The notes beneath the pieces were generated by a model. The model ran no database searches. It saw only the letters and a program-made list of their open reading frames with translations, and was not told the origin of the DNA. A stretch of 32,000 nucleotides of DNA from Chloroflexota bacterium (GTDB lineage Bacteria; Chloroflexota; Anaerolineae; Anaerolineales; Villigracilaceae): contig JACRLC010000064.1 of assembly GCA_016235425.1 (NCBI GenBank), positions 6,242 to 38,241 on the forward strand, in the 5' to 3' direction. Each line of letters opens with the position of its first letter. The first letter of the stretch is position 1. Of the stretch, positions 3,413-31,061 are shown piece after piece. The translations under genes and the position numbers were made by a program.

Positions 3413-3660
3413 AATCCTCGATTACATTACTGATAAACAAAGAGGACATTAATAGTCTTATTATTGTGAATTATATGTGCGAACGCCTTTTCAGGCAATA
3501 GGCCGCCCGGCAATCGGGAAATACTTTTCATCGTTACTCCTTTGCCAAACCGGTGTTATTGGTAATCGTCTGGATCGTAAAAATAATTAGCCCGCACTTC
3601 CTATTGAATATCACAGAGCCGGGGGATAAGATAAAAATACGCCGACATATTAGGAGAATT

Positions 3661-5135: not shown

Positions 5136-6281
5136 ATGCGCCTGCGCTTCCAACTCTTCATTTTCATGCTCTTACGCACCATCCTGAATACCATGCACAG
5201 GATGGTGTATCCATTTTTGGCAGTCTTTGCACGCGGCCTCGGTGTGGATGTCACGACATTATCGTTGGTCGTTACCGTGCGTTCGTTCGCCGGGATGCTG
5301 GGTCCGCTCTTTGCCCCCATCGCGGATAAAAAAGGGCGCAAGTTTGGCATGTTGGCGGGGATCGTGATCTTTACATTCGGTGTGGGGTTGGTTGCAGTCT
5401 ATCCCAGCTTGTACACGCTCTCCGCCGGTTTGATCCTTGCATTGTTCGGAAAGTATTTTTTGGACCCCGCCACACAAGCCTATTTTGGCGACCGCGTACC
5501 TTATGAACAACGCGGCACGGCGCTGGCTGTGGCGGAAATGTCCTGGTCACTGGCGTTTATCGTGGGGGTACCATCGATAGCTTTTTTGATCGCACGTTAC
5601 GGTTGGTCTGCGCCGTTTCCGCTTTTGGCAATGCTCAGTATTTTGATGTTTGCAGTCATCTGGAGCATTGTCCCGCATGAAGACGAGCATCATGAAAAGA
5701 TGAACAACTCACGCGATGGTTACCACGCGGTATTCACTTCCATCCCCGCTTTGGCGGGAGTATCGATTGCGTTATGGGCCAGCGCGGCGAATGAGATGGT
5801 CAACCTGGTGTTTGGTGTATGGCTGGAAGATTCGTTTGGGTTGAAGATTGCGGCGCTTGCAGGAGACTCCACAGTGATCGGGGTTTCGGAATTGGGCGGG
5901 GAGGGCCTCGTTGCGCTCACAACGGACCGGCTCGGCAAGCCGCGCGCCCTGGCGCTGGGACTGGCATTGAACATGATCGCGTCCATTCTGTTGCCATTCA
6001 TCGGCAGGACGCAAATCGGCGCGTTGGTTGGGCTTTTCTTCTTTTACATCACCTTTGAATATGTGATGGTCAGCCATATCCCGATGATGCCCGAATTGGT
6101 TCCGAAGGCGCGGGCAACGATGTTGTCACTTAATATCGCCGGTCACTCCGTGGGGCGTGCGCTTGGAGCACTGCTGGCAACTTTCATCTACCAGCAGTTT
6201 GGTTTCGTTTTCGTTGCGCTCTCCGCGGTCATTTTCAACGTGTTCAGTTTGCTGGCCCTGCGTCGAATGATGCGGTCATGA
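5136..6281 (+). CDS. MFS transporter
   Basis: 381 aa with about 12 TM segments. PIADKKGRKFG is the loop 2-3 motif typical of MFS proteins. Confidence 0.8.
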   Translation: MRLRFQLFIFMLLRTILNTMHRMVYPFLAVFARGLGVDVTTLSLVVTVRSFAGMLGPLFAPIADKKGRKFGMLAGIVIFTFGVGLVAVYPSLYTLSAGLILALFGKYFLDPATQAYFGDRVPYEQRGTALAVAEMSWSLAFIVGVPSIAFLIARYGWSAPFPLLAMLSILMFAVIWSIVPHEDEHHEKMNNSRDGYHAVFTSIPALAGVSIALWASAANEMVNLVFGVWLEDSFGLKIAALAGDSTVIGVSELGGEGLVALTTDRLGKPRALALGLALNMIASILLPFIGRTQIGALVGLFFFYITFEYVMVSHIPMMPELVPKARATMLSLNIAGHSVGRALGALLATFIYQQFGFVFVALSAVIFNVFSLLALRRMMRS

Positions 6282-7050: not shown

Positions 7051-7315
7051 GGGGAAAGTCTCCTTTCTTCTAGAATTTCCCAGGAAGGCCTCCTGAGATT
7101 GTCTATATTGTACTTGCTTGCATAAAAAATACAAGAGGTTATAAAACGATTTTCCTAACAGTTATGTTAGACTAACAGGAATGAAAGTGCTTAAATGGCA
7201 CGGGGCACCAGGAAAATTTAAAAAAACCGAAACATTCGGTACAGTTGTACCATTTTACTGTTTAAGCTCACAGTTTAAAATTAATTTTATACTAATGAAG
7301 CATGAGGTATTTCAC

Positions 7316-7684
7316 ATGACACTTCAAAACATGTTTCTCGTCAATTCGGCGATTTCAGTATTCTTCTCGCTGGCCCTTCTGCTGATGCCCGGCCCCATGC
7401 TTGAACTATTCAGCCTGTCTGGAAATCCCACAGAGAAGTTGTTGTTGCAGTTTTTTGGCGCTCAACTGCTGGCCACGGGTTTGCTCACGCTTTTCGCCAT
7501 GAATACAAAGGAACTGCGCTCCCAGCGTTCCCTGACACTGGCTTTCTTCATTGCCGATGGGATCGGTTTTATCGTGGCGCTCGGCGGTATGCTCACCGGC
7601 GTGATGGGTACACTGGGTTGGGGATTTGTCCTGGTGTATCTGCTTCTTGCGCTGGGATTCGGATATTTCCAGTTCATCGGTTGA
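7316..7684 (+). CDS. small 4-TM membrane protein
   Basis: The most plausible start is MTLQNMF at 7316, with tgaggt 7 nt upstream. The upstream part of the ORF is AT-rich and non-protein-like. Confidence 0.55.
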   Translation: MTLQNMFLVNSAISVFFSLALLLMPGPMLELFSLSGNPTEKLLLQFFGAQLLATGLLTLFAMNTKELRSQRSLTLAFFIADGIGFIVALGGMLTGVMGTLGWGFVLVYLLLALGFGYFQFIG

Positions 7685-7798
7685 AGTTGATCCTTCGATA
7701 AGGTTGCCGCCTCCCGGGAGACGGCTTTTTGCGCCGATCTGCTAAAATAGTATCATCCTGCCTGTGCGAATGAAAAAAAGTACAAACGGTCACGAACC

Positions 7799-10754: not shown

Positions 10755-11654
10755 ATGCAAATTGACGTTATCGGCGTGCCCATTGACCTCGGCGCGGACC
10801 GCCGCGGTGTGGACATGGGACCCAGCGCCATTCGTTACGCCCACCTGCAACAAAAACTCGAATCGCTCGGTTACACCGTGCAGGACGAAGGCAATGTGGA
10901 AGTACCCATCGCCGAAATGTGCAAGATCACAAATCCAAAATTAAAGTACATTGATTGCATCGTGCCAATGTCCCGCCGCGTGGCAGGCGCGGTTGCCACA
11001 TCCGTGCAGGGCGGACGTTTCCCGCTCGTCCTCGGCGGCGACCACAGCCTCTCGATTGGCTCCGTGCGCGGCGCGGCGCGCAACAAAAAGATTGGCGTGA
11101 TCTGGATCGACGCCCACGGCGATTTCAACACCGCTGAAACCACGCCCTCGGGCAACATCCACGGCATGTCTCTCGCCGCCCTTGCAGGGCTTGGGGACCA
11201 GAGTCTCACTCAATTGTGGGACGAGCAAATCCCGGTCATAGATCCGAAGCGGATCGCCGTCATCGGCGCGCGCGATCTCGATCCCGGAGAAAAATCCAAC
11301 CTGCAAGAAGCCGGTGCAATGGTCATGAGCATGGAACAGATCGACCGTTATGGCATGGTCACGGTTGTCGAAAAGGCCATCGAACGCGCCAGCCGCGATA
11401 CGGACGGCATTTACGTCTCCCTCGACCTCGACGCCCTCGACCCGCGCCATGCGCCCGGCGTGGGCACGCCCGTCCCTGCGGGACTTACCCAGCGCGAAGC
11501 CCACCTCGTCTGTGAACTCATCGCCGAAACGGGCAGGCTGGTCGGCATGGATTTGGTGGAGGTCAACCCCATCCTCGATATACAAAATCAAACTGCCCTG
11601 CTCGCCGTGGACTTCGCCCTCACGGCCCTGGGCAGTCGCATTTGGATGGGATGA
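10755..11654 (+). CDS. rocF: arginase (ureohydrolase family)
   Basis: AGGAG RBS. GGDHS, DAHGDFNT, SGNIHGM and SLDLDALDP are the Mn-binding ureohydrolase motifs. The overall pattern is arginase-like. Confidence 0.8.
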   Translation: MQIDVIGVPIDLGADRRGVDMGPSAIRYAHLQQKLESLGYTVQDEGNVEVPIAEMCKITNPKLKYIDCIVPMSRRVAGAVATSVQGGRFPLVLGGDHSLSIGSVRGAARNKKIGVIWIDAHGDFNTAETTPSGNIHGMSLAALAGLGDQSLTQLWDEQIPVIDPKRIAVIGARDLDPGEKSNLQEAGAMVMSMEQIDRYGMVTVVEKAIERASRDTDGIYVSLDLDALDPRHAPGVGTPVPAGLTQREAHLVCELIAETGRLVGMDLVEVNPILDIQNQTALLAVDFALTALGSRIWMG

Positions 11655-13939: not shown

Positions 13940-13974
13940 GTGGGCCCGGCAGGATTTGAACCTGCGACCAAGCG
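13940..13974. repeat. attL: 35-bp displaced copy of the tRNA-Met 3' end
   Basis: GTGGGCCCGGCAGGATTTGAACCTGCGACCAAGCG is identical to 22899-22933. Confidence 0.8.
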
Positions 13975-14011
13975 GGAGAAATTTGTTCCAGTTCGGCTAT
14001 ATTTTTATGTT

Positions 14012-14344
14012 TTATGGAGGGGATATTTGAACTGGAAGCCATAGTGTTGGGGTTGGAGATGGATTTGTTGTTGAACCTGTGAGAGCATTTATGACTGTTA
14101 CGATTATACAGAAGTATAGGATTATGCCTATGCTTGAAATTATTATATTTGCTGTCATAAAGTGTCCCCAGATTGCGAAGGCCCTGGGGAAAAACTTGTT
14201 GCTAAAAATATTGCTTTTTGGGGGTCTTGTTGTTGATATTCTTTTGCTGAGTTCTAGGTTTTCTTCTTGCAGAGTTTTTATTTGTTGTTCTAGGCTTGTT
14301 AGGTATTCTGTGAGTTCGTTCATGTTTTTGAATTGTGGCGCCAT
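14012..14344 (-). CDS. prophage membrane protein with N-terminal coiled coil
   Basis: aaggga RBS 12 nt after the repressor stop. LTSLEQQIKTLQEENLELSKR is a coiled coil and IIISSIGIILYFCIIVTVINAL is a TM helix. Confidence 0.6.
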   Translation of the reverse strand: MAPQFKNMNELTEYLTSLEQQIKTLQEENLELSKRISTTRPPKSNIFSNKFFPRAFAIWGHFMTANIIISSIGIILYFCIIVTVINALTGSTTNPSPTPTLWLPVQISPP

Positions 14345-14356
14345 TGTATTTCCCTT

Positions 14357-14713
14357 TTACGTGTCTTTTTTGATGTTTTTTAGTTTCAGTCTTATTTGGT
14401 CTATTTCTTTGAATTTTTCATCGGTAGGTAGTTTGTTGAATAGATCGAGCATTTCTTCTTCAAGTCTTGATAGTTTTATGATTGTTTCGGAGGGGTAAAA
14501 GTAACTGATTGGTTTTTTGTAATGGTGGGCTATTTGCACTAGTAGGGAGGCGTTGATAGCTGTTTTTCCCCTTTCCATGTCAGATATTGCTACTCTGGAT
14601 TTATTTAGTGCTTTTGCTAGTTCTCCTTGATTTTCGTTTGCATCGAGGCGTGCTTGTAGTATTCGTCCCCGAATGTATCTGTTGATAGCGTTGTCTTCTT
14701 GTTGCTTTGGCAT
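14357..14713 (-). CDS. XRE-family HTH repressor (cI-like)
   Basis: NQGELAKALNKSRVAISDMERGKTAINASLLVQIAHHYKKPISYF is an HTH_3 pattern. It is divergent from the main phage operon. Confidence 0.75.
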   Translation of the reverse strand: MPKQQEDNAINRYIRGRILQARLDANENQGELAKALNKSRVAISDMERGKTAINASLLVQIAHHYKKPISYFYPSETIIKLSRLEEEMLDLFNKLPTDEKFKEIDQIRLKLKNIKKDT

Positions 14714-14734
14714 CTTTGCAAAATTGTTGGTTAA

Positions 14735-14780
14735 ATTGTAGCATTTTTACCCTTGACGTGTGGTCGGTTTTGAATAAAAT
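14735..14780. promoter_or_regulatory. back-to-back divergent promoters (prophage switch region)
   Basis: Plus strand: TTGACG (14753-14758), 16-nt spacer, TAAAAT (14775-14780). Minus strand: extended -10 TGCTACAAT (14743-14735). AAATTGT direct repeats at 14721 and 14733. Confidence 0.45.
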
Positions 14781-14796
14781 TATAAGAAATTCCGAC

Positions 14797-15048
14797 ATGA
14801 CTACAAACACTACTGTAAACGTTCGCGAACTGGTTACGACCGGCTTTTTCACCGGTGACTGGTCAGAATTTGATAAACATCATCAAGCGTCCATGGATGC
14901 GATTTTTGGCGTCATGCAGTTGAGGCGGGAATTTCGTGTCACTCGCTCGCTTGGTTGTGTTGAAACAGGTCTATTCTTTGCCTTCGATGAGGTGAAGGAT
15001 AGATTTTTATTTGCCTGCACAGGTTTTGTGCAAGGGAGGTTATTGTAA
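14797..15048 (+). CDS. prophage hypothetical protein (83 aa)
   Basis: First ATG downstream of the plus-strand promoter. The stop overlaps the next start (TAATG). Confidence 0.55.
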   Translation: MTTNTTVNVRELVTTGFFTGDWSEFDKHHQASMDAIFGVMQLRREFRVTRSLGCVETGLFFAFDEVKDRFLFACTGFVQGRLL

Positions 15049-15548
15049 TGGCAAAGTTTTCAGGTTGGCTTCATTCAGTCGAGTGGTCAAACTCGCACAC
15101 TAATCCGCCTGCGGAGGCGCCGCGTATTTTGGCAGAAGTATTCACGCTCGAAAAAGACACGCCGATTGAGTTTCAAAACTTTTCTTATTCGCTCGGTGGT
15201 GGTTATTCGAAGACTATACGCTATGTAGCCGAAGCCAGTGGAAAAGAATTGTCAAAAGAAGTGCTTGCCAGTGTTCGCAAGAAACGATTGGTGCGGCGCG
15301 TGAAGGCAAAAGTTCCGATGTTCGCTGATTTTTTCATTGAGCAGGAGATACAGAGAAAAGCAGAATATTATGACGGCATAACCGATGGAGGTTTACAGCA
15401 GGCGAGAGAAGAAGTCTTGGCGCATGAGTTGGAACGCTTCGAGTTTTTCAAAGCGAATGTCAATAAGGTTTTCATCTATGCCGATGAACCAAATGAGTGC
15501 AAAGAAAAAGCGGCGCGCTTACGGGTTGAAATGCTTGCAATCCAGTAG
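15048..15548 (+). CDS. prophage hypothetical protein (166 aa)
   Basis: Translationally coupled to the preceding ORF. Protein-like composition, but no motif recognised. Confidence 0.65.
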   Translation: MAKFSGWLHSVEWSNSHTNPPAEAPRILAEVFTLEKDTPIEFQNFSYSLGGGYSKTIRYVAEASGKELSKEVLASVRKKRLVRRVKAKVPMFADFFIEQEIQRKAEYYDGITDGGLQQAREEVLAHELERFEFFKANVNKVFIYADEPNECKEKAARLRVEMLAIQ

Positions 15549-15554
15549 GTCAAT

Positions 15555-15713
15555 ATGTTTGACGAGGGCGCATCTGTCCATCACTGGTATTACGGCTTCG
15601 GTACGGTTGAGGAGTGTCAATCGGTTCGTGGCGGGCTTCTGCGTTACCTGGTGTATTTTGAAAGTGTGCTGGATCGTCTTTGGGTTTGGTCAAGTGATTT
15701 GGTAGGCAATTAG
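15555..15713 (+). CDS. small prophage ORF (52 aa), not in ORF track
   Basis: Hand translation gives MFDEGASVHHWYYGFGTVEECQSVRGGLLRYLVYFESVLDRLWVWSSDLVGN. It fills the gap between neighbouring genes on the same strand. Confidence 0.4.
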   Translation: MFDEGASVHHWYYGFGTVEECQSVRGGLLRYLVYFESVLDRLWVWSSDLVGN

Positions 15714-15791
15714 CGGACGTTCCGCTTTGTGTGTCAACTTGCCCGAATTGGCACAAAAAATTATAGGGCTAATCAAAAAGGAGTTTATCTG

Positions 15792-16052
15792 ATGAAAGTT
15801 CAATTCAAAGGTTTCGTTCGTGACATCTACGTCAGCGACAAGGACAAGAACGGGAACGCAAAGACCAATCCTGTTCATTACATCACGTTCGTTGACATGG
15901 AAACAGGCGGGGATGTCAAGCTGTCATTTCCCGAGGGTCATGGTCTGGCTGTTGGTCAGCAGGTCAATATTGACGCAGTTGTGAAGGGTCGTACCTTCTC
16001 GAACTCGGTTGGCTATCATGTTGAACAACTGAACGGAAGCAAGCCGAAGTAG
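15792..16052 (+). CDS. small beta-rich protein, candidate ssDNA-binding protein (gene V analogue)
   Basis: AAGGAG RBS. 86 aa, MKVQFKGFVRDIYVSDKDKNGN ... QQVNIDAVVKGRTF, which looks OB-like. It sits immediately upstream of the coat genes, as in Ff phage. The function is an inference. Confidence 0.45.
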   Translation: MKVQFKGFVRDIYVSDKDKNGNAKTNPVHYITFVDMETGGDVKLSFPEGHGLAVGQQVNIDAVVKGRTFSNSVGYHVEQLNGSKPK

Positions 16053-16116
16053 GGCATATCGGGCGGCTTGGTCGTATGGTCGCTCGTTTGACTTTCAAGG
16101 AAAGGAGGAATACATC

Positions 16117-16230
16117 ATGACGATTGCCGCCGCAATTACCGCTCTCACTGACTTGGGCGTCCTGCCCGTGATCACTGTCGTGGCGACTGTGTTCATTGCC
16201 GCCTATCTCTACAAGTCCTTCAAACGCTAA
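16117..16230 (+). CDS. mini coat protein candidate 1 (37 aa, no signal peptide)
   Basis: AAAGGAGGAA RBS. MTIAAAITALTDLGVLPVITVVATVFIAAYLYKSFKR has an amphipathic N-terminus, a TM helix and a basic C-terminus, a Pf3-type coat architecture. Confidence 0.6.
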   Translation: MTIAAAITALTDLGVLPVITVVATVFIAAYLYKSFKR

Positions 16231-16299
16231 TTTTGCGTTGACGGGCTGTCTATCGAATGTGCCTGGGGTAACACTCAGGCACATTTAAAGGAGTGATAC

Positions 16300-16428
16300 A
16301 TGCCCCCTAATCTTATGACTATTGCCGCCGCGATTGTTGCGCTGAATGATTTGGGTCTCTTGCCTGTAGTTACCGTTGTGGCGACTGTGTTTGTCGCCGC
16401 CTATTTGTACAAGTCCTTCAAACGCTAG
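16300..16428 (+). CDS. mini coat protein candidate 2 (42 aa), paralogue of 16117-16230
   Basis: AAAGGAG RBS. MPPNLMTIAAAIVALNDLGLLPVVTVVATVFVAAYLYKSFKR. A canonical terminator hairpin follows at 16450-16479. Confidence 0.6.
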   Translation: MPPNLMTIAAAIVALNDLGLLPVVTVVATVFVAAYLYKSFKR

Positions 16429-16492
16429 TCGTCGAGGATTTTTTGAAGGTGCGCCTGAGTAATGCTTAGGCGCATTTTTCAAGAGGTGAAAC

Positions 16493-16609
16493 ATGTTACA
16501 TGCCGCCATTGAATTACTAAAGGATTTGGGTGTCTGGCAGGCCGTTCAAGCGGTCATTGCCATTGTGTTTACCTGGCTTGCGTATCTGGGTTTTGTCAAT
16601 CGTCGTTGA
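16493..16609 (+). CDS. mini coat-like protein 3 (38 aa)
   Basis: AAGAGGTGAA RBS. MLHAAIELLKDLGVWQAVQAVIAIVFTWLAYLGFVNRR has the same architecture and a diverged sequence. Confidence 0.45.
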   Translation: MLHAAIELLKDLGVWQAVQAVIAIVFTWLAYLGFVNRR

Positions 16610-16619
16610 AAGGCAGAAA

Positions 16620-16814
16620 ATGAATGCACAAGATTATCTATTCCCTGCTTACTTCGTGGTTCTCGTCTTTGTTGCTTCGTTCTCGTCGAAGCTACAGCGG
16701 GTCGCGGTCGTTTCGGCTCTCGGCCTTGTGGCGGTTTATCCGAACCCGGATGCTGGCACTTTCATTTTTCTTTTTATTATTCCTGCCGCTATTCTTGCCA
16801 GTTTCACGGGTTGA
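16620..16814 (+). CDS. small hydrophobic protein (64 aa), uncertain
   Basis: aaagg RBS. Two or three hydrophobic segments. It overlaps the start of the next gene by 65 nt, and the T-rich DNA gives hydrophobic peptides in several frames. Confidence 0.35.
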   Translation: MNAQDYLFPAYFVVLVFVASFSSKLQRVAVVSALGLVAVYPNPDAGTFIFLFIIPAAILASFTG

Positions 16815-17931
16815 GGCACAAACTCCGACTGATACGCCTGCGCCTGTAACGGCTACGGCAACAGGTCATCCGTTATGGCCTTCGATGACGCCTGAACCGA
16901 CGCAAAATTATACCTGTCCTGGGTCTCAGCCGATTGGATGGGGGACTGTAACGCCCGATCCGTATTGGCTTCTCAATTGTCAGGTGTGCGTTACTCCGCA
17001 AGTGCAGGCGACTGAGACGCCCTATCCCGTATCAACTTACATGATCCCGCTGACACAGACGGCGCAAGCTGTCTCTACGCTTACACCTGGTACGGCGACT
17101 GTGACGGTTACTCCTGCCGCCACGTCTATCGCTGGTACGTCTACTCCTGGCAATCCGCTTTTGGTTTGTGATAGTCCTGGCTGTGTCGAGTTGAGTGATA
17201 CATCCATAATGCAACATTTTGCGGGGGAGGTTCTGGTATCTACTCATCCGCAGGTTGTTGTTACGATGAACTATCATCGCACGTCGTCGGCGTGGGCTTC
17301 GCTTTATGTTTACTACTGGGTGACGCATGCGGAATTGCAGAATACGACGGGGTCAGGTAAGAACGTGGCGGATTTTTACAGGACTACTTCTAATGTGAAC
17401 CTTATCAATTATCAGTTCCCTGTCACGGGTATATCGGCAGGGACGACGAGGGATGCTACGTTTGATTATAGTGCGGTCACGTCCAGTACTAACTGGGTGG
17501 GTACTATTTTTACGGGCATACAGTTGGACGGGGCGATAGGTGTTATCTATCGTTACGATATGGACATATATGTTTCTACTGTGCCGATGGATTTTGGCCT
17601 TTTGACTGTTACGCCTACTCCGGTTGTTACCGCTACACCTTATAGCAACTGTGGCGCTGTTGATCCTGATCCAGACACAGGCGGTGATGGTGATTTCGAG
17701 ATACCCGATCCTTGGATTGGTGGCACGACCTGCCCGATTGATTTTGGTGGGGTGGATATTCCGCTGTACGGTATTTTCGGTCTTTCTGATTTTCATCTTC
17801 CTGGTTTGCGGGTTTGCTTTACCGAGATTACGTTTGGCACGCTGGTTTACTATGGTGTTGCCGTGGACGTAGATTATCTTGCTTACATTCTGGCGGCCGC
17901 CGCTCTGATCGGCATGTTTACGAAAGGTTAA
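16750..17931 (+). CDS. g3p-like minor coat / adsorption protein candidate
   Basis: MLALSFFFLLFLPLFLPVSRVEA is a signal peptide. Thr/Pro-rich linkers (TPTDTPAPVTATATG, TLTPGTATVTVTPAATS, TVTPTPVVTATP) separate domains. C-terminal TM anchor YLAYILAAAALIGMF. Confidence 0.55.
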   Translation: MLALSFFFLLFLPLFLPVSRVEAQTPTDTPAPVTATATGHPLWPSMTPEPTQNYTCPGSQPIGWGTVTPDPYWLLNCQVCVTPQVQATETPYPVSTYMIPLTQTAQAVSTLTPGTATVTVTPAATSIAGTSTPGNPLLVCDSPGCVELSDTSIMQHFAGEVLVSTHPQVVVTMNYHRTSSAWASLYVYYWVTHAELQNTTGSGKNVADFYRTTSNVNLINYQFPVTGISAGTTRDATFDYSAVTSSTNWVGTIFTGIQLDGAIGVIYRYDMDIYVSTVPMDFGLLTVTPTPVVTATPYSNCGAVDPDPDTGGDGDFEIPDPWIGGTTCPIDFGGVDIPLYGIFGLSDFHLPGLRVCFTEITFGTLVYYGVAVDVDYLAYILAAAALIGMFTKG

Positions 17932-17935
17932 TGAC

Positions 17936-18046
17936 ATGGGCGATATTGAAATTACGTTCCTTATGAACCCGCATGTACTGACGGCGTTGGGCGTTTGGCT
18001 TTTGGCGACACTGGTCAAGTGGGTTGTTGGCTTTTTTCGAGGCTGA
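17936..18046 (+). CDS. 36-aa single-TM protein (minor coat g6p/g7p/g9p analogue?), not in ORF track
   Basis: Hand translation gives MGDIEITFLMNPHVLTALGVWLLATLVKWVVGFFRG. It lies between the g3p-like and Zot-like genes. Confidence 0.4.
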   Translation: MGDIEITFLMNPHVLTALGVWLLATLVKWVVGFFRG

Positions 18047-18048
18047 TT

Positions 18049-18864
18049 ATGCCGTTCATGGGAGCGCAGGTTGCTTTTGCTACACTGCATGGGTATCGCA
18101 TGGTCTGGATACCTGGCGCATTTGGCAATGGCAAGACGTTGCTTTCGATGGGTATTTACGCACAGTACTTTCAGCCGCGAGGTTACAAGCTTGTTTCGAA
18201 TACTCGTTCTATCTGGACAGAAGAGAGTTTGGACAATGTTCGGATGGATGATAACGGTCATCTAAAGGCGTTTATCCTGATTGACGAGGGCGGGCAGTAC
18301 TTTACGGATGGTGATGATATTCGGGAGTTGTTGCGTAATCCCCGCAAGATGGATTATGTCTTGTGCTTTCCGTCTTTTCATCCGCCGCATCGTTCGGCGC
18401 AAATTTATCAAATGCAACCCACTTGGAGTTTTCGGTCTGCTGGAATTCCGCTGATACATTTCGACTGGTATGTCAAGATTGGTCAGTACAAGACAAAAGG
18501 CGGCTTCAATTGGGTGCTTTTTCAGGAGATGTATGGAACTTATTCGAGTCAAAACCCTGGCGCATCGCCTGCGTCAATTCGTAAGTGGCTTTCGGCACAG
18601 AACAAACTTTTTCGGGAACGCTTCGGCTATGACGACGAAGATGATGTTCTCGACAATCAAGAGGGCGGCTCTGTCGCTGGTGACTGGCTTCGGAAGATGG
18701 AGGGCGAAAAGCTTACAGCCGAAGAAAGACGGGTTCAAGACTTGCTCCAAAGTGCGCTTCGGGCTAATCGAGACAGTGAGGATAATTTGGCACTTATGGA
18801 GGAAGAAACCGCTGAGCTCGAGGCCGTACTTGCTCGAAGTGCAAAGCGGAGGAAACGGGGCTGA
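18049..18864 (+). CDS. Zot / pI-like P-loop morphogenesis ATPase
   Basis: Walker A GAFGNGKT and Walker B FILIDEGG at Zot-family spacing. The position after the g3p/g6p analogues fits. The C-terminus is an acidic coiled coil with no TM helix. Confidence 0.75.
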   Translation: MPFMGAQVAFATLHGYRMVWIPGAFGNGKTLLSMGIYAQYFQPRGYKLVSNTRSIWTEESLDNVRMDDNGHLKAFILIDEGGQYFTDGDDIRELLRNPRKMDYVLCFPSFHPPHRSAQIYQMQPTWSFRSAGIPLIHFDWYVKIGQYKTKGGFNWVLFQEMYGTYSSQNPGASPASIRKWLSAQNKLFRERFGYDDEDDVLDNQEGGSVAGDWLRKMEGEKLTAEERRVQDLLQSALRANRDSEDNLALMEEETAELEAVLARSAKRRKRG

Positions 18865-18874
18865 TGCCGCTGGT

Positions 18875-19528
18875 GTGGTGGCGTTCATTGGCTTTATGAT
18901 GTATATCGCTTTTATGTTGCGCTTGTTCCTGCCGATGATTGGTAACATTCCGTTTTTCAGTTCTGCCGATACCGCAATCGAGCAGGCCGAATTTGTACCT
19001 GCTCCTGCTACGGCTGTTTATGGTGCTGGCTATACGGGTCTCTCTGTTCCTGGGTCTACTCCGGTTTTCAATCTTCCTGTGCCTGCTGTCACGGCTACGG
19101 TTGTGCTTGAGCAACCGACGTACACACCTTATCCGACGTACACGCCTTATCCGGTGGCGACCCAGGATGTCTTGACTATCAAGGTACAGTACTCATATTA
19201 CTGGCCGCCGCTCTTAGGCCCTAACTGTCATCCTGATAATCTGCTTCCCGAGGGCGGCTGTCGGGATACTACATCGAGCGGTTTGCCCTGGTCGCAATAC
19301 CGAGGCAAGGGAGTGGCGATACCGTTACTTTGGACTGAGGCTGTCCCGCTTGGGTCAACGGTTCGGGTTTTGTCTCCCGTCGAAATGATAGGCGACTATC
19401 TTGTTATAGATTACTGCGGTGGTTGCATCAAGTCAGAGTACCCTGATTTGGTTTGGCTGGACTTTCTGGATGATACACAACGGTTGAATTGGTCTGCCGA
19501 TATGACGGTGCAAATCATTCCGCCGTGA
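18875..19528 (+). CDS. membrane-anchored protein with C-terminal 3D / RlpA-like (DPBB) domain
   Basis: The start is uncertain: GTG at 18875 or 18878, or ATG at 18896. N-terminal TM VVAFIGFMMYIAFMLRLFLPMIG, then a PTYTPYPTYTPYP linker. SYYWPP..TSSGLPW..GVAIP..VPLGSTVRV..IGDYLVIDYCGGCI..LDFL resembles 3D-domain muralytic proteins. Confidence 0.5.
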   Translation: MVAFIGFMMYIAFMLRLFLPMIGNIPFFSSADTAIEQAEFVPAPATAVYGAGYTGLSVPGSTPVFNLPVPAVTATVVLEQPTYTPYPTYTPYPVATQDVLTIKVQYSYYWPPLLGPNCHPDNLLPEGGCRDTTSSGLPWSQYRGKGVAIPLLWTEAVPLGSTVRVLSPVEMIGDYLVIDYCGGCIKSEYPDLVWLDFLDDTQRLNWSADMTVQIIPP

Positions 19529-20199
19529 AATATAACGGTAAATGCCTGGGGCTTGAAAATCGCTTGTAGAATGTCTGGCCGTTCCGTGTGCAATGTCTAT
19601 CGGAGCGAGAATTTACCAGACGAGAGCGCATCAGGTAAAACGGAAAATGCCGGTGATACTGTCAATCTTCCAGCGTCGTGAATGCCTGTTTTTGCAATGC
19701 CTGGGTTGCGGTGATGTGGTGAGAAAGGTGCTTTTGTGATCTCGGCTCTCGGCTTGGCTACGCGACCCCTTCTCCGCCTGTGTGTCGGTAGAATGTTTTT
19801 GGTAGGGAATGTCTGTTGTTTTTAGTGCGTATCCGAAGTTCACGCAGTGGTGCGGCGTTGGTATTTTGCGGTGATGTGTTGCCGATAGTGTAAGCGTTGA
19901 TACTGGTTCTTTGCTGGTTTTGTAGTGGCGCATATCTTTTCTATGCGAGCTAACTTAGCGAAGATGTCGGGTTTGTGCGGATGTGCGCCACTGCAAATTT
20001 AGCAAATGATGGAGTCGAGGACGGAACGGAGAACGAGGACTGGAGCGGAGCGAAGCCCGCAGTTCGAGTACCGCCCGCAGTTGCAAAATAACAAGACGCC
20101 CCCACTACTGATAGGGGGGCGGAGTTTTGTAAAGTTATATTTTGGACTTTCTCGGTCTGGTTTTTCGGTCGAGACTTGTCTATACAAAGGATAATATCA
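19529..20199 (+). promoter_or_regulatory. prophage large intergenic region: candidate origin / packaging / regulatory region
   Basis: About 670 nt with no convincing ORF. Same-orientation AATG[CT]CTG[GT] 9-mers, a 13-bp direct repeat, a 12-bp stem inverted repeat, a purine-rich tract and a GC hairpin at 20097-20121, all upstream of rep. Confidence 0.4.
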
Positions 20200-21147
20200 A
20201 TGCGTATACACTGGTTTGCTTTTACTGTTCACGCTGACGAGGCTCATGGTCGGGCTTTGTGGCAACGTCACTTTTTTCATTCGCTCGGTGCGTTGGTTTC
20301 TACTGAGCGTAAGGGCCGAGGGTTCGAGGCTATTGATGTGGCTTTGAACGAGGCGAAGTTCTATTATTCTCCGATCCAGCCCAAGAAAAAAGGTGAGGAT
20401 GATCCTGAGCCGAAAAAGTTGGAGTACTACAATTTCGAGATACCTGGCTCGGCTTGTGATGCTCTTGTTCCCACGGTTTTTCGGGATGTTGTCGGGGAGT
20501 TGAGTGCTTCGGGCTTGCGTTGGTCGGTCAGGCGGATAGATGTTGCCTGGGACGGATTGCCTTTTACGCCTGTCGAATTTGCTCATGCAGTTATTCGGGG
20601 CTATGCTGTGACTTTGGCAAAACGTGAGACATTATCACTGGTTCAATCTCCGTTTGCAGTGCGTGAAGATGGTTCGGGATTTGGCTGTGATACCTGTTAC
20701 ATAGGCAGTAAGGAAAGTCAACGTTTCATCCGTGTTTATAACTCTCGTGGCTTCAATCGTCTTGAAATTGTCTTTCGTGATGAGCGTGCGCATGTGGTTG
20801 CGTTGGATGTTTTTAATTATCGGTATGAATTTTGGGATTTGAAAGCTCGTGAGCATTTGACGCAATATATCCGCTTTACCGAGGAGTTCTCACAGTGGGA
20901 TGATTTTATTCAAGGCGCAAAAAGTGCCAATATAAAAGTCTCGTCTGCTCGCGTGATTTCGCTTGCTCGTGGCGAAAGTTGGATTGAAAAGCAGGTTGCC
21001 GTATTTCTTTCGGTGCATGAGGATGTTTGGGGCAGAAAGCAATCAAGAGACCGAATAGGGAAATTGGTCAATCATGCGCGGGCTACTCGTGACCGTACTC
21101 GTTACTCCGCTGTTCTTCAACTAGCGAATGCTGGTGGGATGTTGTGA
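20200..21147 (+). CDS. rolling-circle replication initiator (Rep_trans family)
   Basis: MRIHWFAFTV (IDWLxFT-like), FEIPGSAC, VRRIDVAWD, TCYIGSKESQRFIRVYNSRG and NRLEIVFRDERA match the Rep_trans motif series as remembered. Confidence 0.8.
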   Translation: MRIHWFAFTVHADEAHGRALWQRHFFHSLGALVSTERKGRGFEAIDVALNEAKFYYSPIQPKKKGEDDPEPKKLEYYNFEIPGSACDALVPTVFRDVVGELSASGLRWSVRRIDVAWDGLPFTPVEFAHAVIRGYAVTLAKRETLSLVQSPFAVREDGSGFGCDTCYIGSKESQRFIRVYNSRGFNRLEIVFRDERAHVVALDVFNYRYEFWDLKAREHLTQYIRFTEEFSQWDDFIQGAKSANIKVSSARVISLARGESWIEKQVAVFLSVHEDVWGRKQSRDRIGKLVNHARATRDRTRYSAVLQLANAGGML

Positions 21148-21530
21148 TGCTTCTCAAAGGTCGCTTGAATGGTCGTGAAAGAACACGTCTCGGAAAACTT
21201 CTTGACATGCTTTATATGCCTAGCGAGTTGGCCGAGGAAGTAGGATTTATTACTCGTCAAATCTATCGTGTTTATGTTCCTTTGGGTTGTCCGTCAACTA
21301 AAGAAAATGGTCACATCTGGATAAATGGCAAAGACTTTGCGGAGTGGTATGAAGCGACTTATCCAAAGCAGACATTATTACCAGATGAGGCTTTTTGTCT
21401 TACTTGTAAAAAGGCCGTGGAAATGGTCAATCCTGAAAGGCGTAGAAAAGGGCGTTTGCGTTATTGGGTTTGTGGTTGTCCCAGGTGCGGGCGTCCACTT
21501 GCGAGAATAATAGACAGGGAAAAGAGGTAA
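21144..21530 (+). CDS. excisionase-like HTH plus CxxC/CxxC zinc-ribbon protein
   Basis: Overlaps the rep stop. MPSELAEEVGFITRQIYRVYVPLGCP..NGHIWINGKDFAEWY resembles the HTH_17/Xis pattern. CLTCKK...CGCPRCG is a zinc ribbon. Confidence 0.45.
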   Translation: MMLLKGRLNGRERTRLGKLLDMLYMPSELAEEVGFITRQIYRVYVPLGCPSTKENGHIWINGKDFAEWYEATYPKQTLLPDEAFCLTCKKAVEMVNPERRRKGRLRYWVCGCPRCGRPLARIIDREKR

Positions 21531-21535
21531 GAAGA

Positions 21536-21841
21536 ATGCGTAATAGTTTGGATTATCAAATGATGCGGGTTTTGCCTGAGCAGTTGTTGCATTTGCGGGG
21601 TTGGCATTCGCAGGATGAAGTATCATCTGCTATTGGGGTGCGTCGTGCAACTGTTTCGGACTGGGAGAATGGAAAGTCTCTTCCTTCTCTTGGTGTCTTT
21701 TTCAAGTTGCTTTTTTGGTTGTGTCAAAATAGGGGTCTGTATAGGTCTGCGGTCGAGAATTGTACGGTCGAGTTGACATTGCCAGGCGGTGTACGGTGCA
21801 GGGTACAGTTTATCGAGGAGCGGGGGAATGGTAAATCGTGA
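21536..21841 (+). CDS. HTH (Cro/C1-type) DNA-binding protein
   Basis: SQDEVSSAIGVRRATVSDWENGKSLPSLGVFFKL is an HTH_3 pattern. Confidence 0.6.
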   Translation: MRNSLDYQMMRVLPEQLLHLRGWHSQDEVSSAIGVRRATVSDWENGKSLPSLGVFFKLLFWLCQNRGLYRSAVENCTVELTLPGGVRCRVQFIEERGNGKS

Positions 21842-22856
21842 TAATTGGAAATATGTTCGAGCATATCTAAGGTATCGGCGGGAGGTAGATCGAATTTCCA
21901 AGAGTTCTCAACGCTTAGAGGAAAGTCGTCTTAGACAATTGTTGCAGTGGGCTGATGCTCGGTCATTTTCAAAGGTGATGGGTATTCGCCCTGTGTTTCC
22001 TGAATATCTGGAAAATCAGGGGCTGTCACGGATTTATGTTCTTCATGTTTTGCGCTCGTCTCGTCGCTTTCTTGGATGGCTTAGAAAGCATGAAATTGGA
22101 TTTTCTGTGATTACTGAGGGCTGGTTGGATACGCTAAAACCATCTAGGGGTAATCCTGAGTATAAAGAGCATGAAGCGGTGACGTTGGAGGAAATACGGG
22201 CTATGGCATGTGCGTCTGTTGAAACGATAGGTGAAAGGCGTATTAGGGCTTCCGTGGTCTTTTGGTTTTTATCGGGTATTCGTGTTGGTGCATTTGTTAC
22301 TTTACCGCTGTCTGCTGTGGATTTAGAAAACCGGACAGTCAAGCAATGGCCTAAGCTGGGAGTAAAGACAAAATTTGGGAAACACGCCACTACGTTTTTA
22401 TTAGATATGCCTGATTTGTTGGAAGTAGTGCAGGAATGGGATAGAGAAGTGCGGGAAGCTGGTGCAAGATATTGGTTTGCTCATGTTGACCCTGAAACGG
22501 GAAAAATTCTTCCAGGAGGCGATGAGGCGGGAAAACATCGGGATGTGAGGGCGAGAAAGGATTTGCAAGCGTGGCTTGGTCGGGTTGGTTTGCTTTATCA
22601 TTCTCCTCATAAATTTAGGCATGGTCACGCCACTTATGCTTTGAAAGGTGCGAAAGATGTACCTGCGCTAAAAGCGATAAGTCAAAATTTGATGCACAAG
22701 AATTTGAGCGTTACGGATGGGGTTTATGCTATTTTGTCGGATTTTGACGTGAAAGAACAAATCACGGAGTTAGGCAAAACTATAGCAGGTAGCCAAAATA
22801 GGGATGAATTGATTGAACTTTTGAAGCAGGTTTTGAAGCAGAATTCCCCCAAATAA
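21828..22856 (+). CDS. int: tyrosine integrase
   Basis: HKFRHGHATYAL is the HxxR box and LMHKNLSVTDGVY carries the catalytic Tyr. N-terminal SAM-like domain. It abuts the tRNA-Met attR. Confidence 0.85.
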   Translation: MVNRDNWKYVRAYLRYRREVDRISKSSQRLEESRLRQLLQWADARSFSKVMGIRPVFPEYLENQGLSRIYVLHVLRSSRRFLGWLRKHEIGFSVITEGWLDTLKPSRGNPEYKEHEAVTLEEIRAMACASVETIGERRIRASVVFWFLSGIRVGAFVTLPLSAVDLENRTVKQWPKLGVKTKFGKHATTFLLDMPDLLEVVQEWDREVREAGARYWFAHVDPETGKILPGGDEAGKHRDVRARKDLQAWLGRVGLLYHSPHKFRHGHATYALKGAKDVPALKAISQNLMHKNLSVTDGVYAILSDFDVKEQITELGKTIAGSQNRDELIELLKQVLKQNSPK

Positions 22857-22898
22857 AAGATTGAATTGGTACAAAACGGCTCTAAAAAAGTGCCTTTT

Positions 22899-22933
22899 GT
22901 GGGCCCGGCAGGATTTGAACCTGCGACCAAGCG
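22899..22933. repeat. attR: 35-bp repeat inside intact tRNA-Met
   Basis: Identical to 13940-13974. Confidence 0.8.
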
Positions 22934-22972
22934 ATTATGAGTCGCCTGCGCTAACCGCTGCGCCACGGGCCC
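22900..22972 (-). tRNA. tRNA-Met (anticodon CAT; could alternatively be a lysidine-modified tRNA-Ile2)
   Basis: Hand-folded cloverleaf: acceptor GGGCCCG/CGGGCCC, anticodon loop CTCATAA, T-loop TTCAAAT. No encoded CCA. Confidence 0.85.
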
Positions 22973-28382: not shown

Positions 28383-28561
28383 AATATAACCTTGTTATTG
28401 TCGTTTCGCCGAAATATAGCATAGAATCCTGAAAACGAACCCTCACATAGTGCAACTCGAACAATCAGGGGCACTGCGGTTGCGCAGTAAAAATTCGGCT
28501 TAAACAAACGGGGGATTTTGTGCTAAAGTAGGGACATCACTGTCACCAAAGGGAAACGGCT

Positions 28562-28621
28562 ATGGCAGAAACAGACTTCAAATGCGATGTTTTCATCGCC
28601 TACAGCCACAAGGATAGATAG
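28562..28621 (+). pseudogene. 19-codon stub with TIR-domain N-terminal signature
   Basis: MAETDFKCDVFIAYSHKDR then TAG. DVFIAYSHKD is the canonical first strand and loop of bacterial TIR domains. The ORF stops 2 nt before the next start codon. Confidence 0.45.
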
Positions 28622-28623
28622 CT

Positions 28624-29292
28624 ATGCCTACAAGCGAAAAAATAGTTTTTCTGTTCGGCTCTGGTATATCAATTCCAGCAGAATTGCCTTCAACGGAGGA
28701 TATAACTCAGATCCTTCTTCGTGGCGAAGGGATAGTCCGCGCCACAGACGGAACGTATTATCTCGGTGATAGTCAATCTGGATACAATCTGACCGACGAA
28801 TATGTTCCAAGAGTCAAGGCATTTCTTGAAAGGATAAAACTTGAAATTGACGCCTTTTACCCTGAAGACTCGCACGAGACAAACTATGAAGATTTCTATT
28901 ATATGGCGTCACAAATTAGAGATTGCGAGGATGGGGAGTATGATAATCCAGCAATCAAGCCATTAATTGACAAGATTTATCCTGACATAAAACCACTTCT
29001 CGATAAACGAGAAAATGATACACATTATGACTGGACATTGCTTGATCTTGCCGCTGAATCAGCCAATTGTATTCGTGATGTGGTATGGCGTTGTTTGTTA
29101 CGAGTCTCAAAACGCCTTGACCATCTTCAACTCATTAAGCGCCGTATTTGTCTACCAATTGGCAACTCTCTATTGCCATCTGCACAACCTGGACTTGCGT
29201 CTCGGTCTCAAAGTTCTCGTCAAAGCCGCATAAGATTTATGTCCAGGCCTCATTTATTGGAAAAGTGCAATAGGAGAGGAAAGATGTATTAA
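28624..29292 (+). CDS. SIR2-like (DHS-like NAD-binding) protein, probably decayed or truncated at the C-terminus
   Basis: KIVFLFGSGISIPAELPS is the GxGxS motif of the SIR2_2 family. The last 50 or so residues (ICLPIGNSLLPSAQPGLASRSQSSRQSRIRF) look out of frame. A TTNYD-like STNWQ string appears in another frame near 29150. The DNA here is AT-rich. Confidence 0.45.
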   Translation: MPTSEKIVFLFGSGISIPAELPSTEDITQILLRGEGIVRATDGTYYLGDSQSGYNLTDEYVPRVKAFLERIKLEIDAFYPEDSHETNYEDFYYMASQIRDCEDGEYDNPAIKPLIDKIYPDIKPLLDKRENDTHYDWTLLDLAAESANCIRDVVWRCLLRVSKRLDHLQLIKRRICLPIGNSLLPSAQPGLASRSQSSRQSRIRFMSRPHLLEKCNRRGKMY

Positions 29293-29409
29293 AGTGAATA
29301 TGATTTATACACTCCAAATTGCGCGCTTTGTCACGCTGATTTGTGACGCCTGTCACTGGCAGTAATGTCTGACATCCTTTAAACTGTGAGCATTAGTCAG
29401 GAGATTGAT

Positions 29410-29628
29410 ATGGCAGAGCGAACCTGGCAGGTACAACAGATCAAGTATTGTGAACGTGTAGGCCACGAGATCGCGCTTGAAAATGAAGTAGTGTACCCCG
29501 CCGAACATCTGCCCGATCAACCGCCCCGCATCATCGCCCATCGCTGTTCCAACGCCATCGAATGTAACATGATTGATAAAGCTTCCTGCGCCGTGTGCGG
29601 CACAAACCCTGACGTTGACTTTGTGTAA
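29410..29628 (+). CDS. small Cys-rich protein (72 aa)
   Basis: AGGAG RBS. Five Cys residues, including a terminal CAVC pair. No family recognised. Confidence 0.5.
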   Translation: MAERTWQVQQIKYCERVGHEIALENEVVYPAEHLPDQPPRIIAHRCSNAIECNMIDKASCAVCGTNPDVDFV

Positions 29629-30812: not shown

Positions 30813-30833
30813 ACGCAAATAATTGACGGAAGA

Positions 30834-31061
30834 CTCATCCAGAGAGGCTGAGGGACCGACCCTTTGACGCCTCGGCAACCGGTGTTAGTCGTCTAGTCTG
30901 ATAGTCAACTAGTCTTGTAGTCAGATAGCCATGAGACTACGAGACCATGCGGCCAAAAGACCACAAGACTTATTACGGTGCCAATTTCGGCAGACAGATG
31001 TCTGGGAGATGAGAGATGACTTTGTATGAAATGTCGCCTCTCATTGCGAGAGGCGATTTTG
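30834..31061 (+). promoter_or_regulatory. SAM-I (S-box) riboswitch with intrinsic terminator expression platform
   Basis: P1 is CTCATC/GATGAG. Core strings AGAGAGGCTGAGGGA, GCAACC, GGTGCCAATTTCGGCAGA and GAGATGAGAG are present. Terminator tcgcctctc-attgc-gagaggcga-tttt at 31034-31060. The antiterminator would pair gatgagag with ctctcat. Confidence 0.8.

Follow-up and report, generated by a model that had tools for sequence, protein, structure and literature searches.

A candidate prophage of a divergent filamentous-phage lineage at a tRNA-Met gene of an Anaerolineales bacterium

Positions 13940–22933 of the 32,000-nucleotide (nt) stretch analyzed here (contig JACRLC010000064.1 of assembly GCA_016235425.1, forward-strand positions 6,242 to 38,241; hereafter the window), which comes from a Chloroflexota bacterium of the order Anaerolineales, probably represent a temperate prophage that looks complete and belongs to a divergent filamentous-phage (Tubulavirales/inovirus-like) lineage, integrated by its own tyrosine integrase at the 3′ end of a tRNA-Met gene of this Chloroflexi metagenome-assembled genome (MAG). 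The island itself is almost certainly a site-specifically integrated mobile element. Because pI is the only marker that filamentous phages have in common (Roux et al., 2019, PMC6813254), the identity of the element’s P-loop ATPase is the crux of the assignment. Inovirus-like prophages integrated in tRNA genes form a well-documented class, defined operationally by a pI-like ATPase, single-transmembrane-domain proteins of 30–90 amino acids (aa), short genes, and direct-repeat attachment (att) sites in a tRNA gene or beside an integrase (Roux et al., 2019, PMC6813254). The element falls within this definition. It combines pI homology at the profile and fold level with small single-transmembrane (TM) proteins and a rolling-circle initiator, its genome is small (~5–15 kb class) with short, mostly co-oriented genes, and it has the end-proximal Phage_integrase gene, the tRNA-derived direct repeats and the unoccupied site in a relative that mark a tRNA prophage. 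For the Zot domain, the ATPase remains below the curated Pfam threshold (PF05707).

Integration at tRNA-Met and the unoccupied site

A perfect 35-bp direct repeat with the core GTGGGCCCGGCAGGATTTGAACCTGCGACCAAGCG occurs in exactly two copies, at 13940–13974 and 22899–22933, which enclose 8,924 bp; in 100 shuffles the 35-mer had zero occurrences, even at 3 mismatches. ARAGORN and Rfam concur on an intact tRNA-Met(CAT) on the minus strand at 22899–22972, and the right copy is therefore the 3′ part of this gene, its 3′ 35 nt (22899–22933) forming attR. Neither program found a tRNA at the left copy, attL (13940..13974), a duplicate of the tRNA-Met 3′ end; the sequence outside it shows homology to the native 3′ flank of the tRNA in the empty-site genome described below. 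Toward the right end lies the gene of a 342-aa tyrosine integrase (21828..22856, +; Phage_integrase PF00589, E 3.6e-7, 30.6 bits vs a cut-off of 27.1; phrog_1, E 2.5e-16) with visible HKFRH and GVY motifs. A first-pass annotation of this DNA had described both the perfect repeat at the tRNA-Met 3′ end and an integrase ending 43 nt from the right copy, and both descriptions are borne out, the integrase open reading frame (ORF) stopping at 22856, 43 nt before 22899. The interval has a G+C content of ~0.39–0.52 vs ~0.51–0.58 in the flanks, and its plus strand is strongly skewed, with G exceeding C and T exceeding A. The flanking genes are of a housekeeping type, with inositol monophosphatase (IMPase) and polysaccharide deacetylase on one side and tRNA-Gly, tRNA-Arg, SurE and thioredoxin on the other. 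An 86-aa protein of the island has a 100% identical counterpart in NCBI, recorded from a ‘Chloroflexi bacterium’ MAG (locus tag HZB19_).

The same annotation had proposed that a related genome might carry an empty tRNA-Met site with the deacetylase gene next to the tRNA, and such a site was found. Exact-protein matches to the deacetylase or SurE, sought for empty sites, yielded none; a metagenome scan with the deacetylase recovered JGI Ga0335394_10001301 (L033; loci used for comparison are given L numbers), in which the deacetylase is 64% identical. In blastn, the collinearity of L033 and the window extends through SurE, tRNA-Arg/Gly/Met, deacetylase, IMPase, arginase and further on. The distance from the end of tRNA-Met (~window 22899) to the deacetylase homology (~window 13809) is ~340 bp in L033 vs ~9.1 kb in the window, and the homology of L033 crosses the tRNA end into the attL flank of the window. 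Likewise, in L090 and L037 the tRNA-Gly/Met run adjoins the deacetylase gene, with tRNA-Arg also found in L033 and L090. L033 reads as an unoccupied site in a related metagenomic genome.

The P-loop ATPase, the coat-like proteins and their neighbors

Fifteen of the 17 genes of the element lie on one strand, and its circle size is 8,959 bp. At the left end, an XRE repressor and a 110-aa TM protein (both minus) are followed by three small early genes and a gene for an 86-aa OB (oligonucleotide/oligosaccharide-binding)-fold protein; the middle encodes coat-like proteins of 37, 42 and 38 aa, a 64-aa two-TM protein, a 393-aa adsorption-like protein, a 36-aa TM protein, the ATPase and a 232-aa TM protein; and the right end comprises a 670-bp non-coding region, Rep_trans, a 127-aa Cys-cluster protein, a helix-turn-helix (HTH) protein and the integrase. 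In agreement with the earlier statement that capsid, portal, terminase and tail genes are absent, no element protein matched such genes in Pfam or PHROGs.

The 271-aa P-loop ATPase (18049..18864, +) is the candidate assembly/extrusion motor. It carries a Walker A motif GAFGNGKT (K29) and a Walker B motif LIDEGG (D79/E80), and it has no TM helix in a simple hydropathy scan, which also missed the helix of M13 pI and found none in B5. An hhalign comparison of the ATPase family profile with a reference set of seven pI/Zot proteins (M13, Pf3 ORF301, Pf1, B5, VGJphi, Cf1c and RSM1) gave 97.2% (E 4e-11, 148 columns), with an alignment that starts at Walker A, continues until the Zot domain ends and takes in the terminal W..P.E.(F/Y)G.Y.(S/T) motif. 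Against single sequences, the family scored 84% for Pf3, 75% for M13, 28% for VGJphi and 11% for B5, vs control values of 6% for VP8 of the pleolipovirus HRPV-1 and 3%, over Walker A only, for PRD1 P9. The AlphaFold 2 (AF2) model has a pLDDT (predicted local distance difference test) value of 78, and its best viral fold match (Foldseek, BFVD) is an Inoviridae Zot protein (E 1.5e-5). Judged from these alignments, the ATPase is truly related to pI/Zot, though very distantly. The first-pass description of a Zot/pI-like ATPase is thus upheld for the Walker motifs and for the relation seen by hhalign and fold, but not for a Pfam Zot match; similarly, the profile hidden Markov model check it had proposed succeeded for Rep_trans and the integrase but not for Zot.

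The family to which this ATPase belongs comprises 27 close relatives and at least 450 representatives at 50% identity among 1.84 billion proteins, the matches listed being of 120–370 aa, and every relative that was given any name by its source is called ‘hypothetical protein.’

The structural block upstream of the ATPase opens with c37 (16117..16230, +; peptide MTIAAAITALTDLGVLPVITVVATVFIAAYLYKSFKR), a 37-aa coat-like protein with an acidic N-terminus, a TM helix and a KSFKR tail, which is the candidate major coat protein. Its gene has the strongest Shine-Dalgarno sequence (GGAGG), and the protein is 100% identical in the related loci L001 and L012, though the other proteins of these elements diverge (40–83% identity). 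A stable hairpin follows it (16255..16286, +; RNA fold −23.2 kcal/mol, z −5.5), after which come a 42-aa paralogue that arose as a tandem duplicate (16300..16428, +; 80% nt identity) and, directly 3′ of the tandem coat genes, an intrinsic-terminator-like hairpin with U-runs (16441..16484, +; RNA fold −25.1 kcal/mol, z −7.2). The third coat-like protein, the 38-aa c38 (16493..16609, +), is a candidate minor coat protein. The 37-, 42-, 38- and 36-aa proteins contain one hydrophobic helix each, the coat-like ones with a basic tail, and the earlier recognition of three 37–42 aa coat-like proteins holds up. These proteins match the coats of Pf3, VGJphi and M13 in their length and in having an acidic head, one helix and a basic tail. 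Two distant relatives, L018 and L019, encode signal-peptide versions of the coat whose mature parts are like textbook class I coats, and the L018 coat shares a ‘DLG’ motif.

Gene models in this region were corrected from gene calls on identical and near-identical contigs together with cross-locus conservation. The ATPase start was placed at 18049 (271 aa) instead of a 289-aa ORF start, and a ‘435-aa’ protein was shortened to start with its signal peptide, at 16750, since codons 1–42 of that ORF (16624–16749) are an alternate frame of the 64-aa two-TM gene; a ‘352-aa’ ORF proved to be the ~232-aa gene starting near 18830. Stop codons are scarce in the alternate frames of the A-poor plus strand, which accounts for several long spurious ORFs. 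Long ORFs at 18470–18829 and at 17353–18261 (−) are probably not genes.

The resulting 393-aa adsorption-like protein (16750..17931, +) resembles the phage adsorption protein g3p, as far as this analogy goes, in architecture only. It has a signal peptide (MLALSFFFLLFLPLFLPVSRVEA, followed by Q), a Thr/Pro linker, a Cys domain and a C-terminal anchor, and the signal peptide, the linker, a ‘CP..P.GWG.VTPD’ block and the C-terminal hydrophobic anchor are kept in all eight loci examined; no family match was found in Pfam, PHROGs or NCBIfam. The g3p-like architecture reported in the first-pass annotation therefore stands, with a 393-aa protein in place of the ‘435-aa’ start. Its gene overlaps by 65 nt that of the 64-aa protein with two TM helices (16620..16814, +), which was called as a gene in L012 and L021 and whose sequence (ALGLVAVYPN.D) is conserved in L001, L002, L012 and the deltaproteobacterial L003. 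This conserved gene had been overlooked when tiny single-TM ORFs were first noted, a description that does hold for the 36-aa single-TM protein in the pVI position (17936..18046, +); a TM gene of 35–42 aa lies directly 5′ of the ATPase gene in every locus.

On its 3′ side the ATPase gene is accompanied by that of a 232-aa membrane protein (18830..19528, +), which has an N-terminal TM segment, a PTYTPY linker and a Cys-rich outer domain. Its gene call and the overlap with the ATPase stop recur in L012, L016, L019 and L020, and across loci a TM protein of 189–237 aa lies 3′ of the ATPase, usually overlapping its stop. No similarity of the 232-aa protein to Pfam or PDB entries or to the C-terminal part of pI was found. 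Its identification as the missing C-terminal half of pI was rejected because hhalign shows no similarity, which leaves a ‘split pI’ as a positional idea only. A programmed frameshift from the ATPase into the TM protein was likewise rejected, since the open alternate frame at 18470–18829 is in keeping with an A-poor strand and the downstream gene of L018 begins past the ATPase stop with no overlap. Assignment of the outer domain (SYYWPP.GPNC...ACP..LG..V.V...DF) to a 3D/double-psi beta-barrel (DPBB), lytic-transglycosylase-like fold was also rejected, as neither Pfam nor a PDB profile search supported it, and the resemblance to such cell-wall-lytic domains is a lead at most. The PTYTPY linker is encoded by an 18-nt tandem repeat, CCGACGTACAC(A/G)CCTTAT, present twice at 19115–19150, and a similar repeat occurs in L002 at 11067–11102.

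The 86-aa OB-fold protein (15792..16052, +) is a candidate single-stranded DNA (ssDNA)-binding protein in the gene V role; its AF2 model (pLDDT 87) is a five-stranded barrel, and its top PDB fold matches are all SSB, PriB or RPA OB folds (prob 1.0, E ~1e-2, TM-score ~0.55), in keeping with its original description as OB-like. Its gene lies directly 5′ of the coat genes, the same placement as in Pf3 and M13. The 315-aa rolling-circle initiator (20200..21147, +) matches Rep_trans (Pfam PF02486, E 2.3e-11, 44.1 bits vs a cut-off of 29.6). Rep_trans, Phage_integrase and the XRE domain (HTH_3), all three named in the first-pass annotation, score above their Pfam thresholds. Rep_trans is also found in the initiator of the inovirus VGJphi and in L003 and L018, and Rep_1 in B5 and L016.

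Relatives, known systems and alternative explanations

The same module occurs in other integrated elements, each adjoining the 3′ end of a tRNA gene. In L012 it forms part of a 9,251-bp unit with 35-bp repeats at tRNA-Thr, and in L002, from a Brevefilum fermentans MAG, part of an 8,992-bp unit with ~37-bp repeats at tRNA-Asn; in L003, from a ‘Deltaproteobacteria’ MAG, it lies beside tRNA-Leu, flanking repeats being confirmed for the L012 and L002 elements only. Between L012 (5833–15118) and the window (13940–22933), the morphogenesis proteins are 94–100% identical, Rep 94%, the integrase 70% and the regulators 55–79%, and the target tRNAs differ (Thr vs Met). This pattern reads as typical mosaicism, and the near-identity of the morphogenesis genes at a different tRNA and with a different integrase argues for recent mobility. 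Gene order is kept across eight loci, down to 22–31% ATPase identity, and the more distant members lie on contigs of 8–9.3 kb with Rep_trans or Rep_1. One of these, L018, is a 9,273-bp contig whose 55-bp terminal overlap at 45x coverage indicates a circular molecule. Two sets of repeats were noted in the sister loci: a 167-nt direct duplication (96% identical) at 7164–7330 and 7537–7703 in the early region of L012, and a 76-nt hairpin-containing repeat in three copies (4313–4388, 5220–5295 and 5787–5862) just outside attL in L002, which may belong to a small host repeat family.

Among known phages, Pseudomonas phage Pf3 (Inoviridae, Tertilicivirus) offers a parallel in gene order, which runs from an ssDNA-binding protein through a short signal-less coat (44 vs 37 aa), a large virion/adsorption protein and a small TM protein to a pI-type ATPase. 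Of the single sequences compared by hhalign, its ORF301 matches the ATPase family best (84%, 149 columns), and it shares the terminal W.FP.E.F.FYTS motif. In contrast to the window element, Pf3 has a TM helix in its pI, a secretin, a G2P-type Rep and no integrase, and no sequence similarity is detectable beyond the ATPase. As to the annotation of Pf3 (L005) itself, ORF430 (2084–3376) matches the Secretin model, and its RefSeq name ‘pIV assembly protein’ is correct, while the pI-type ATPase ORF301 (3449–4354) is annotated as hypothetical only. Propionibacterium phage B5 (Paulinoviridae) is similar in its order of coat, large structural protein, small protein and ~300-aa ATPase, with Rep directly after; in an ATPase that lacks a TM helix by the simple hydropathy scan, which missed the M13 pI helix too; in the absence of a secretin; and in a Rep_1 initiator of the type found in family member L016. 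It differs in that its ATPase is Zot-related within the seven-protein set and aligns weakly with this family (11%), and in having neither an integrase nor a tRNA att site. Vibrio phage VGJphi (Inoviridae, Fibrovirus) shares a temperate lifestyle, Rep_trans, a 44-aa coat with a basic tail and a divergent regulator, but it integrates via host XerCD at dif-like sites instead of by its own tyrosine integrase at a tRNA, and both a TM helix and a clear Zot domain are present in its pI. In Pf1, an annotated terminator directly follows the coat gene, where the terminator-like hairpin lies here.

A second point of reference is provided by the IME1 elements of Dehalococcoides, which are 21–28 kb in length, proposed to be double-stranded DNA and equipped with a primase-helicase rather than an initiator for rolling-circle replication (RCR; Nesbo et al., 2026 preprint, 10.64898/2026.09.15.751708). 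Like the window element, they have a Chloroflexota host, a tyrosine recombinase beside a tRNA, a pI-like ATPase with small TM proteins, and an HTH repressor at one end. Unlike them, the window element is 9 kb in length with Rep_trans and an OB-fold protein, and the primase-helicase and a large metallophosphoesterase-like gene are not present. Since tRNA-integrated inovirus-like prophages and IME1 in Chloroflexota have been documented, the type of element is already known; a full-text literature search for ‘filamentous phage’ with ‘Anaerolineae’ returned no paper. The new features are an ATPase clade below the curated models tried (Pfam, PHROGs and NCBIfam), an apparently anchor-less ATPase paired with a separate TM protein, and a conserved 64-aa two-TM protein.

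Several observations weigh against the assignment to filamentous phages. The ATPase has no Pfam Zot (PF05707) match, although six of the first-tested pI reference set do; Zot was matched by four of 51 ATPase family members (best E 0.0086) vs 45 of 51 for the generic nSTAND3 model. It is also unmatched in PHROGs and NCBIfam, a PDB sequence search with it returned nothing, its PDB fold matches are weak and to generic RecA-like ATPases, and its Foldseek TM-scores to Zot are low (0.33–0.39). In lacking a TM helix by the scan described above, it is unlike five of the seven reference pI proteins. The OB-fold protein resembles cellular SSB/PriB, not gene V protein specifically. The coat, adsorption and small TM proteins match no known family, and searches of the small and uncharacterized proteins against Pfam, PHROGs, NCBIfam and PADLOC gave HTH-domain matches only. 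A tblastn search of 50,697 phage records with the ATPase and Rep found no relative, IMG/VR motif scans found no relative of the ATPase, and megablast of the island against phages found nothing. The earlier suggestion of a divergent lineage holds. Finally, a circular-looking contig, L020 (Logan SRR12113396, 8,984 bp with a 25-bp terminal overlap, equivalent to window 13945–22928), was rejected as an excised circle because it starts with exactly the final 30 nt of the 35-bp repeat and finishes with exactly the initial 30 nt, as graph branching at k=31 yields; it is the expected assembly-graph product of a repeat-flanked insert.

Three other explanations have to be weighed, of which a non-viral integrative element survives best, although it is unlikely. 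Under it, the island would be an integrative RCR plasmid or a mobilizable element, with Rep_trans as plasmid initiator or MobT-type relaxase and with the ATPase and membrane proteins serving DNA transfer or maintenance. Rep_trans proteins do include plasmid initiators and relaxases of integrative and conjugative elements, and Rep shows a faint NCBIfam MobT match (E 3e-4), but at 19.7 bits this is far from the cut-off of 600. The lack of a family assignment for the ATPase, the lack of direct evidence for particles and the absence of family members from the virus collections searched are compatible with such an element; however, the Pfam search revealed no FtsK or type IV coupling protein (T4CP), type IV secretion system (T4SS) or relaxase accessory domains, and it is with pI/Zot, rather than with an FtsK-HerA packaging control, that the ATPase aligns. 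Moreover, the coat-like genes, which are conserved and appear highly expressed, the terminator, and the OB-fold and adsorption-like proteins have no role in elements of this type.

Still less probable is a membrane-budding, non-filamentous virus resembling pleolipoviruses or plasmaviruses, which share an RCR Rep, an anchored spike with a signal peptide, small membrane proteins, a P-loop ATPase and a genome of 7–12 kb. The layout of HRPV-1 is comparable (Rep, VP3, the VP4 spike with its signal peptide and the VP8 ATPase), several of the top viral fold matches to the ATPase are unnamed proteins of 269–286 aa or archaeal-virus proteins (ATV ORF286), and pI-like ATPases with small TM proteins are common to budding viruses too (10.64898/2026.09.15.751708). 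It is the profile comparison that speaks against such a virus, since the ATPase family aligns with HRPV-1 VP8 at 6% vs 75–84% for the single pI proteins of M13 and Pf3 and 97% for the pI profile; in addition, the proteins of 37–49 aa (mature length for the signal-peptide forms) match inovirus coats rather than the 132-aa VP3, and an OB-fold ssDNA-binding candidate occupies the gene V position.

The least probable explanation is a cryptic or defective prophage or a satellite, inovirus-like yet no longer able to excise or make particles alone, for although no circular junction or free form of the exact element was found, the L020 contig being an assembly-graph effect, and although there is no secretin and no recognizable TM or periplasmic part of pI, the conserved genes are all uninterrupted, the two att repeats match perfectly, contigs from several runs carry the element in identical form, the coat protein is strongly conserved, and the sister element L012, with its near-identical morphogenesis proteins and Rep at a different tRNA with a 70% identical integrase, points to recent mobility.

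Remaining genes, proposed life cycle and implications

At the left end of the island, a divergently oriented XRE/HTH_3 regulator (14357..14713, −) is the likely prophage repressor; it matches Pfam HTH_3 (E 1.9e-10) and PHROG repressor/regulator families and is kept in L012 and L002. Beyond it toward attL is a 110-aa accessory protein (14012..14344, −) bearing a coiled coil at its N-terminus and a TM helix at 67–85, an ORF with a 55% identical homologue in the L012 element and no family or defense-system match. A promoter-like site, TTGACG-16-TAAAAT (14753..14780, +), faces the string of plus-strand genes and agrees with the consensus at 10 of 12 positions as a pattern match only. The three early ORFs that follow encode an 83-aa protein (14797..15048, +; 65% identical in L012, gene called in L020), a 166-aa protein (15048..15548, +) that matches phrog_27524 (E 2e-13) and for which tblastn against phages gave a single match, in Rhodobacter phage RcapNL (a hypothetical protein), and a 52-aa protein (15555..15713, +; 73% identical in L012). 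Between Rep and the integrase lie the ORF of the 127-aa protein with a C-terminal, Zn-ribbon-like Cys cluster (21147..21530, +; 72% identical in L012 and 52% in L002) and that of a 101-aa HTH_3 protein (21536..21841, +; Pfam E 9.4e-9, gene called in L020), which is possibly an excision/directionality factor or a second regulator.

The 670-bp non-coding region contains two hairpins of potential functional importance. A long imperfect hairpin (19910..20006, +; 27-nt arms, 81% complementary; DNA fold z −4.9) may serve as a packaging signal or minus-strand origin. A GC-stem hairpin 5′ of rep, CGCCCCC-ACTACTGATA-GGGGGCG (20097..20121, +; DNA fold z −4.2), is a candidate double-strand origin that may contain the Rep nick site, and its loop has what we take to be a resemblance to the pT181 nick region. 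The GC-stem hairpin is identical in L012 and nearly so in L001, whose remaining non-coding region does not align.

In the life cycle proposed for a filamentous-phage-like prophage with these genes, the divergent XRE protein (14357–14713) would repress the plus-strand operon. Upon derepression, Int would recombine the two 35-bp cores and free the 8,959-bp circle, perhaps assisted by the 101-aa HTH protein. Rep_trans would then nick the replicative form in the 670-bp non-coding region, with 20097–20121 as the candidate site, and rolling-circle replication would generate ssDNA to be coated by the 86-aa OB-fold protein. The 37- and 42-aa coats, which like the Pf3 coat are without a signal peptide, would gather in the membrane and displace the OB protein as the DNA is threaded out, a process that the TM-less ATPase may drive with the 36-, 64- and 232-aa TM proteins as membrane partners. 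The 393-aa protein (16750–17931) would cap the filament and mediate adsorption. No secretin is encoded in the element. Chloroflexota are generally regarded as lacking a classical outer membrane, and the absence of a secretin fits a host of this phylum.

Elsewhere in the window, a SAM (S-adenosylmethionine) riboswitch (Rfam RF00162) at 30832–31015 (+), with 72 bits vs a gathering score of 44, is unrelated to the element. A patch of low G+C content (0.43) at 28500–29500, which contains a 222-aa ORF (28624–29292) with no Pfam match, may be another small foreign insert.

A broader proposal, to which we assign somewhat less than even confidence, is that the ATPase is the hallmark of a large clade of filamentous-phage-like elements that has gone unannotated, and that the pI motor of this clade, its membrane anchor lost, operates together with a separate TM protein. 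Such a clade would extend over Chloroflexota (Anaerolineales and Brevefilum) and at least one ‘Deltaproteobacteria’ MAG, in both tRNA-integrating and free circular forms, and might constitute a family-level lineage of Tubulavirales that escapes the virus-detection resources now in use and contains the first candidate filamentous phages of Anaerolineae-type hosts.

Filamentous phages shape biofilms, virulence and gene flow, and they have been found almost entirely via the pI/Zot marker. In the element described here this marker did not reach the threshold of any curated model tried, though the gene order, coats, replication and integration are classic. If particles are made, surveys of inoviruses count too few such phages in Chloroflexota, a phylum common in anaerobic digesters, sediments and groundwater, and the ATPase family profile built here would provide a new marker with which to search for them. 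In that event, a TM-less ATPase with a separate membrane partner would also offer a system in which to ask which parts of pI are needed for extrusion without a secretin.

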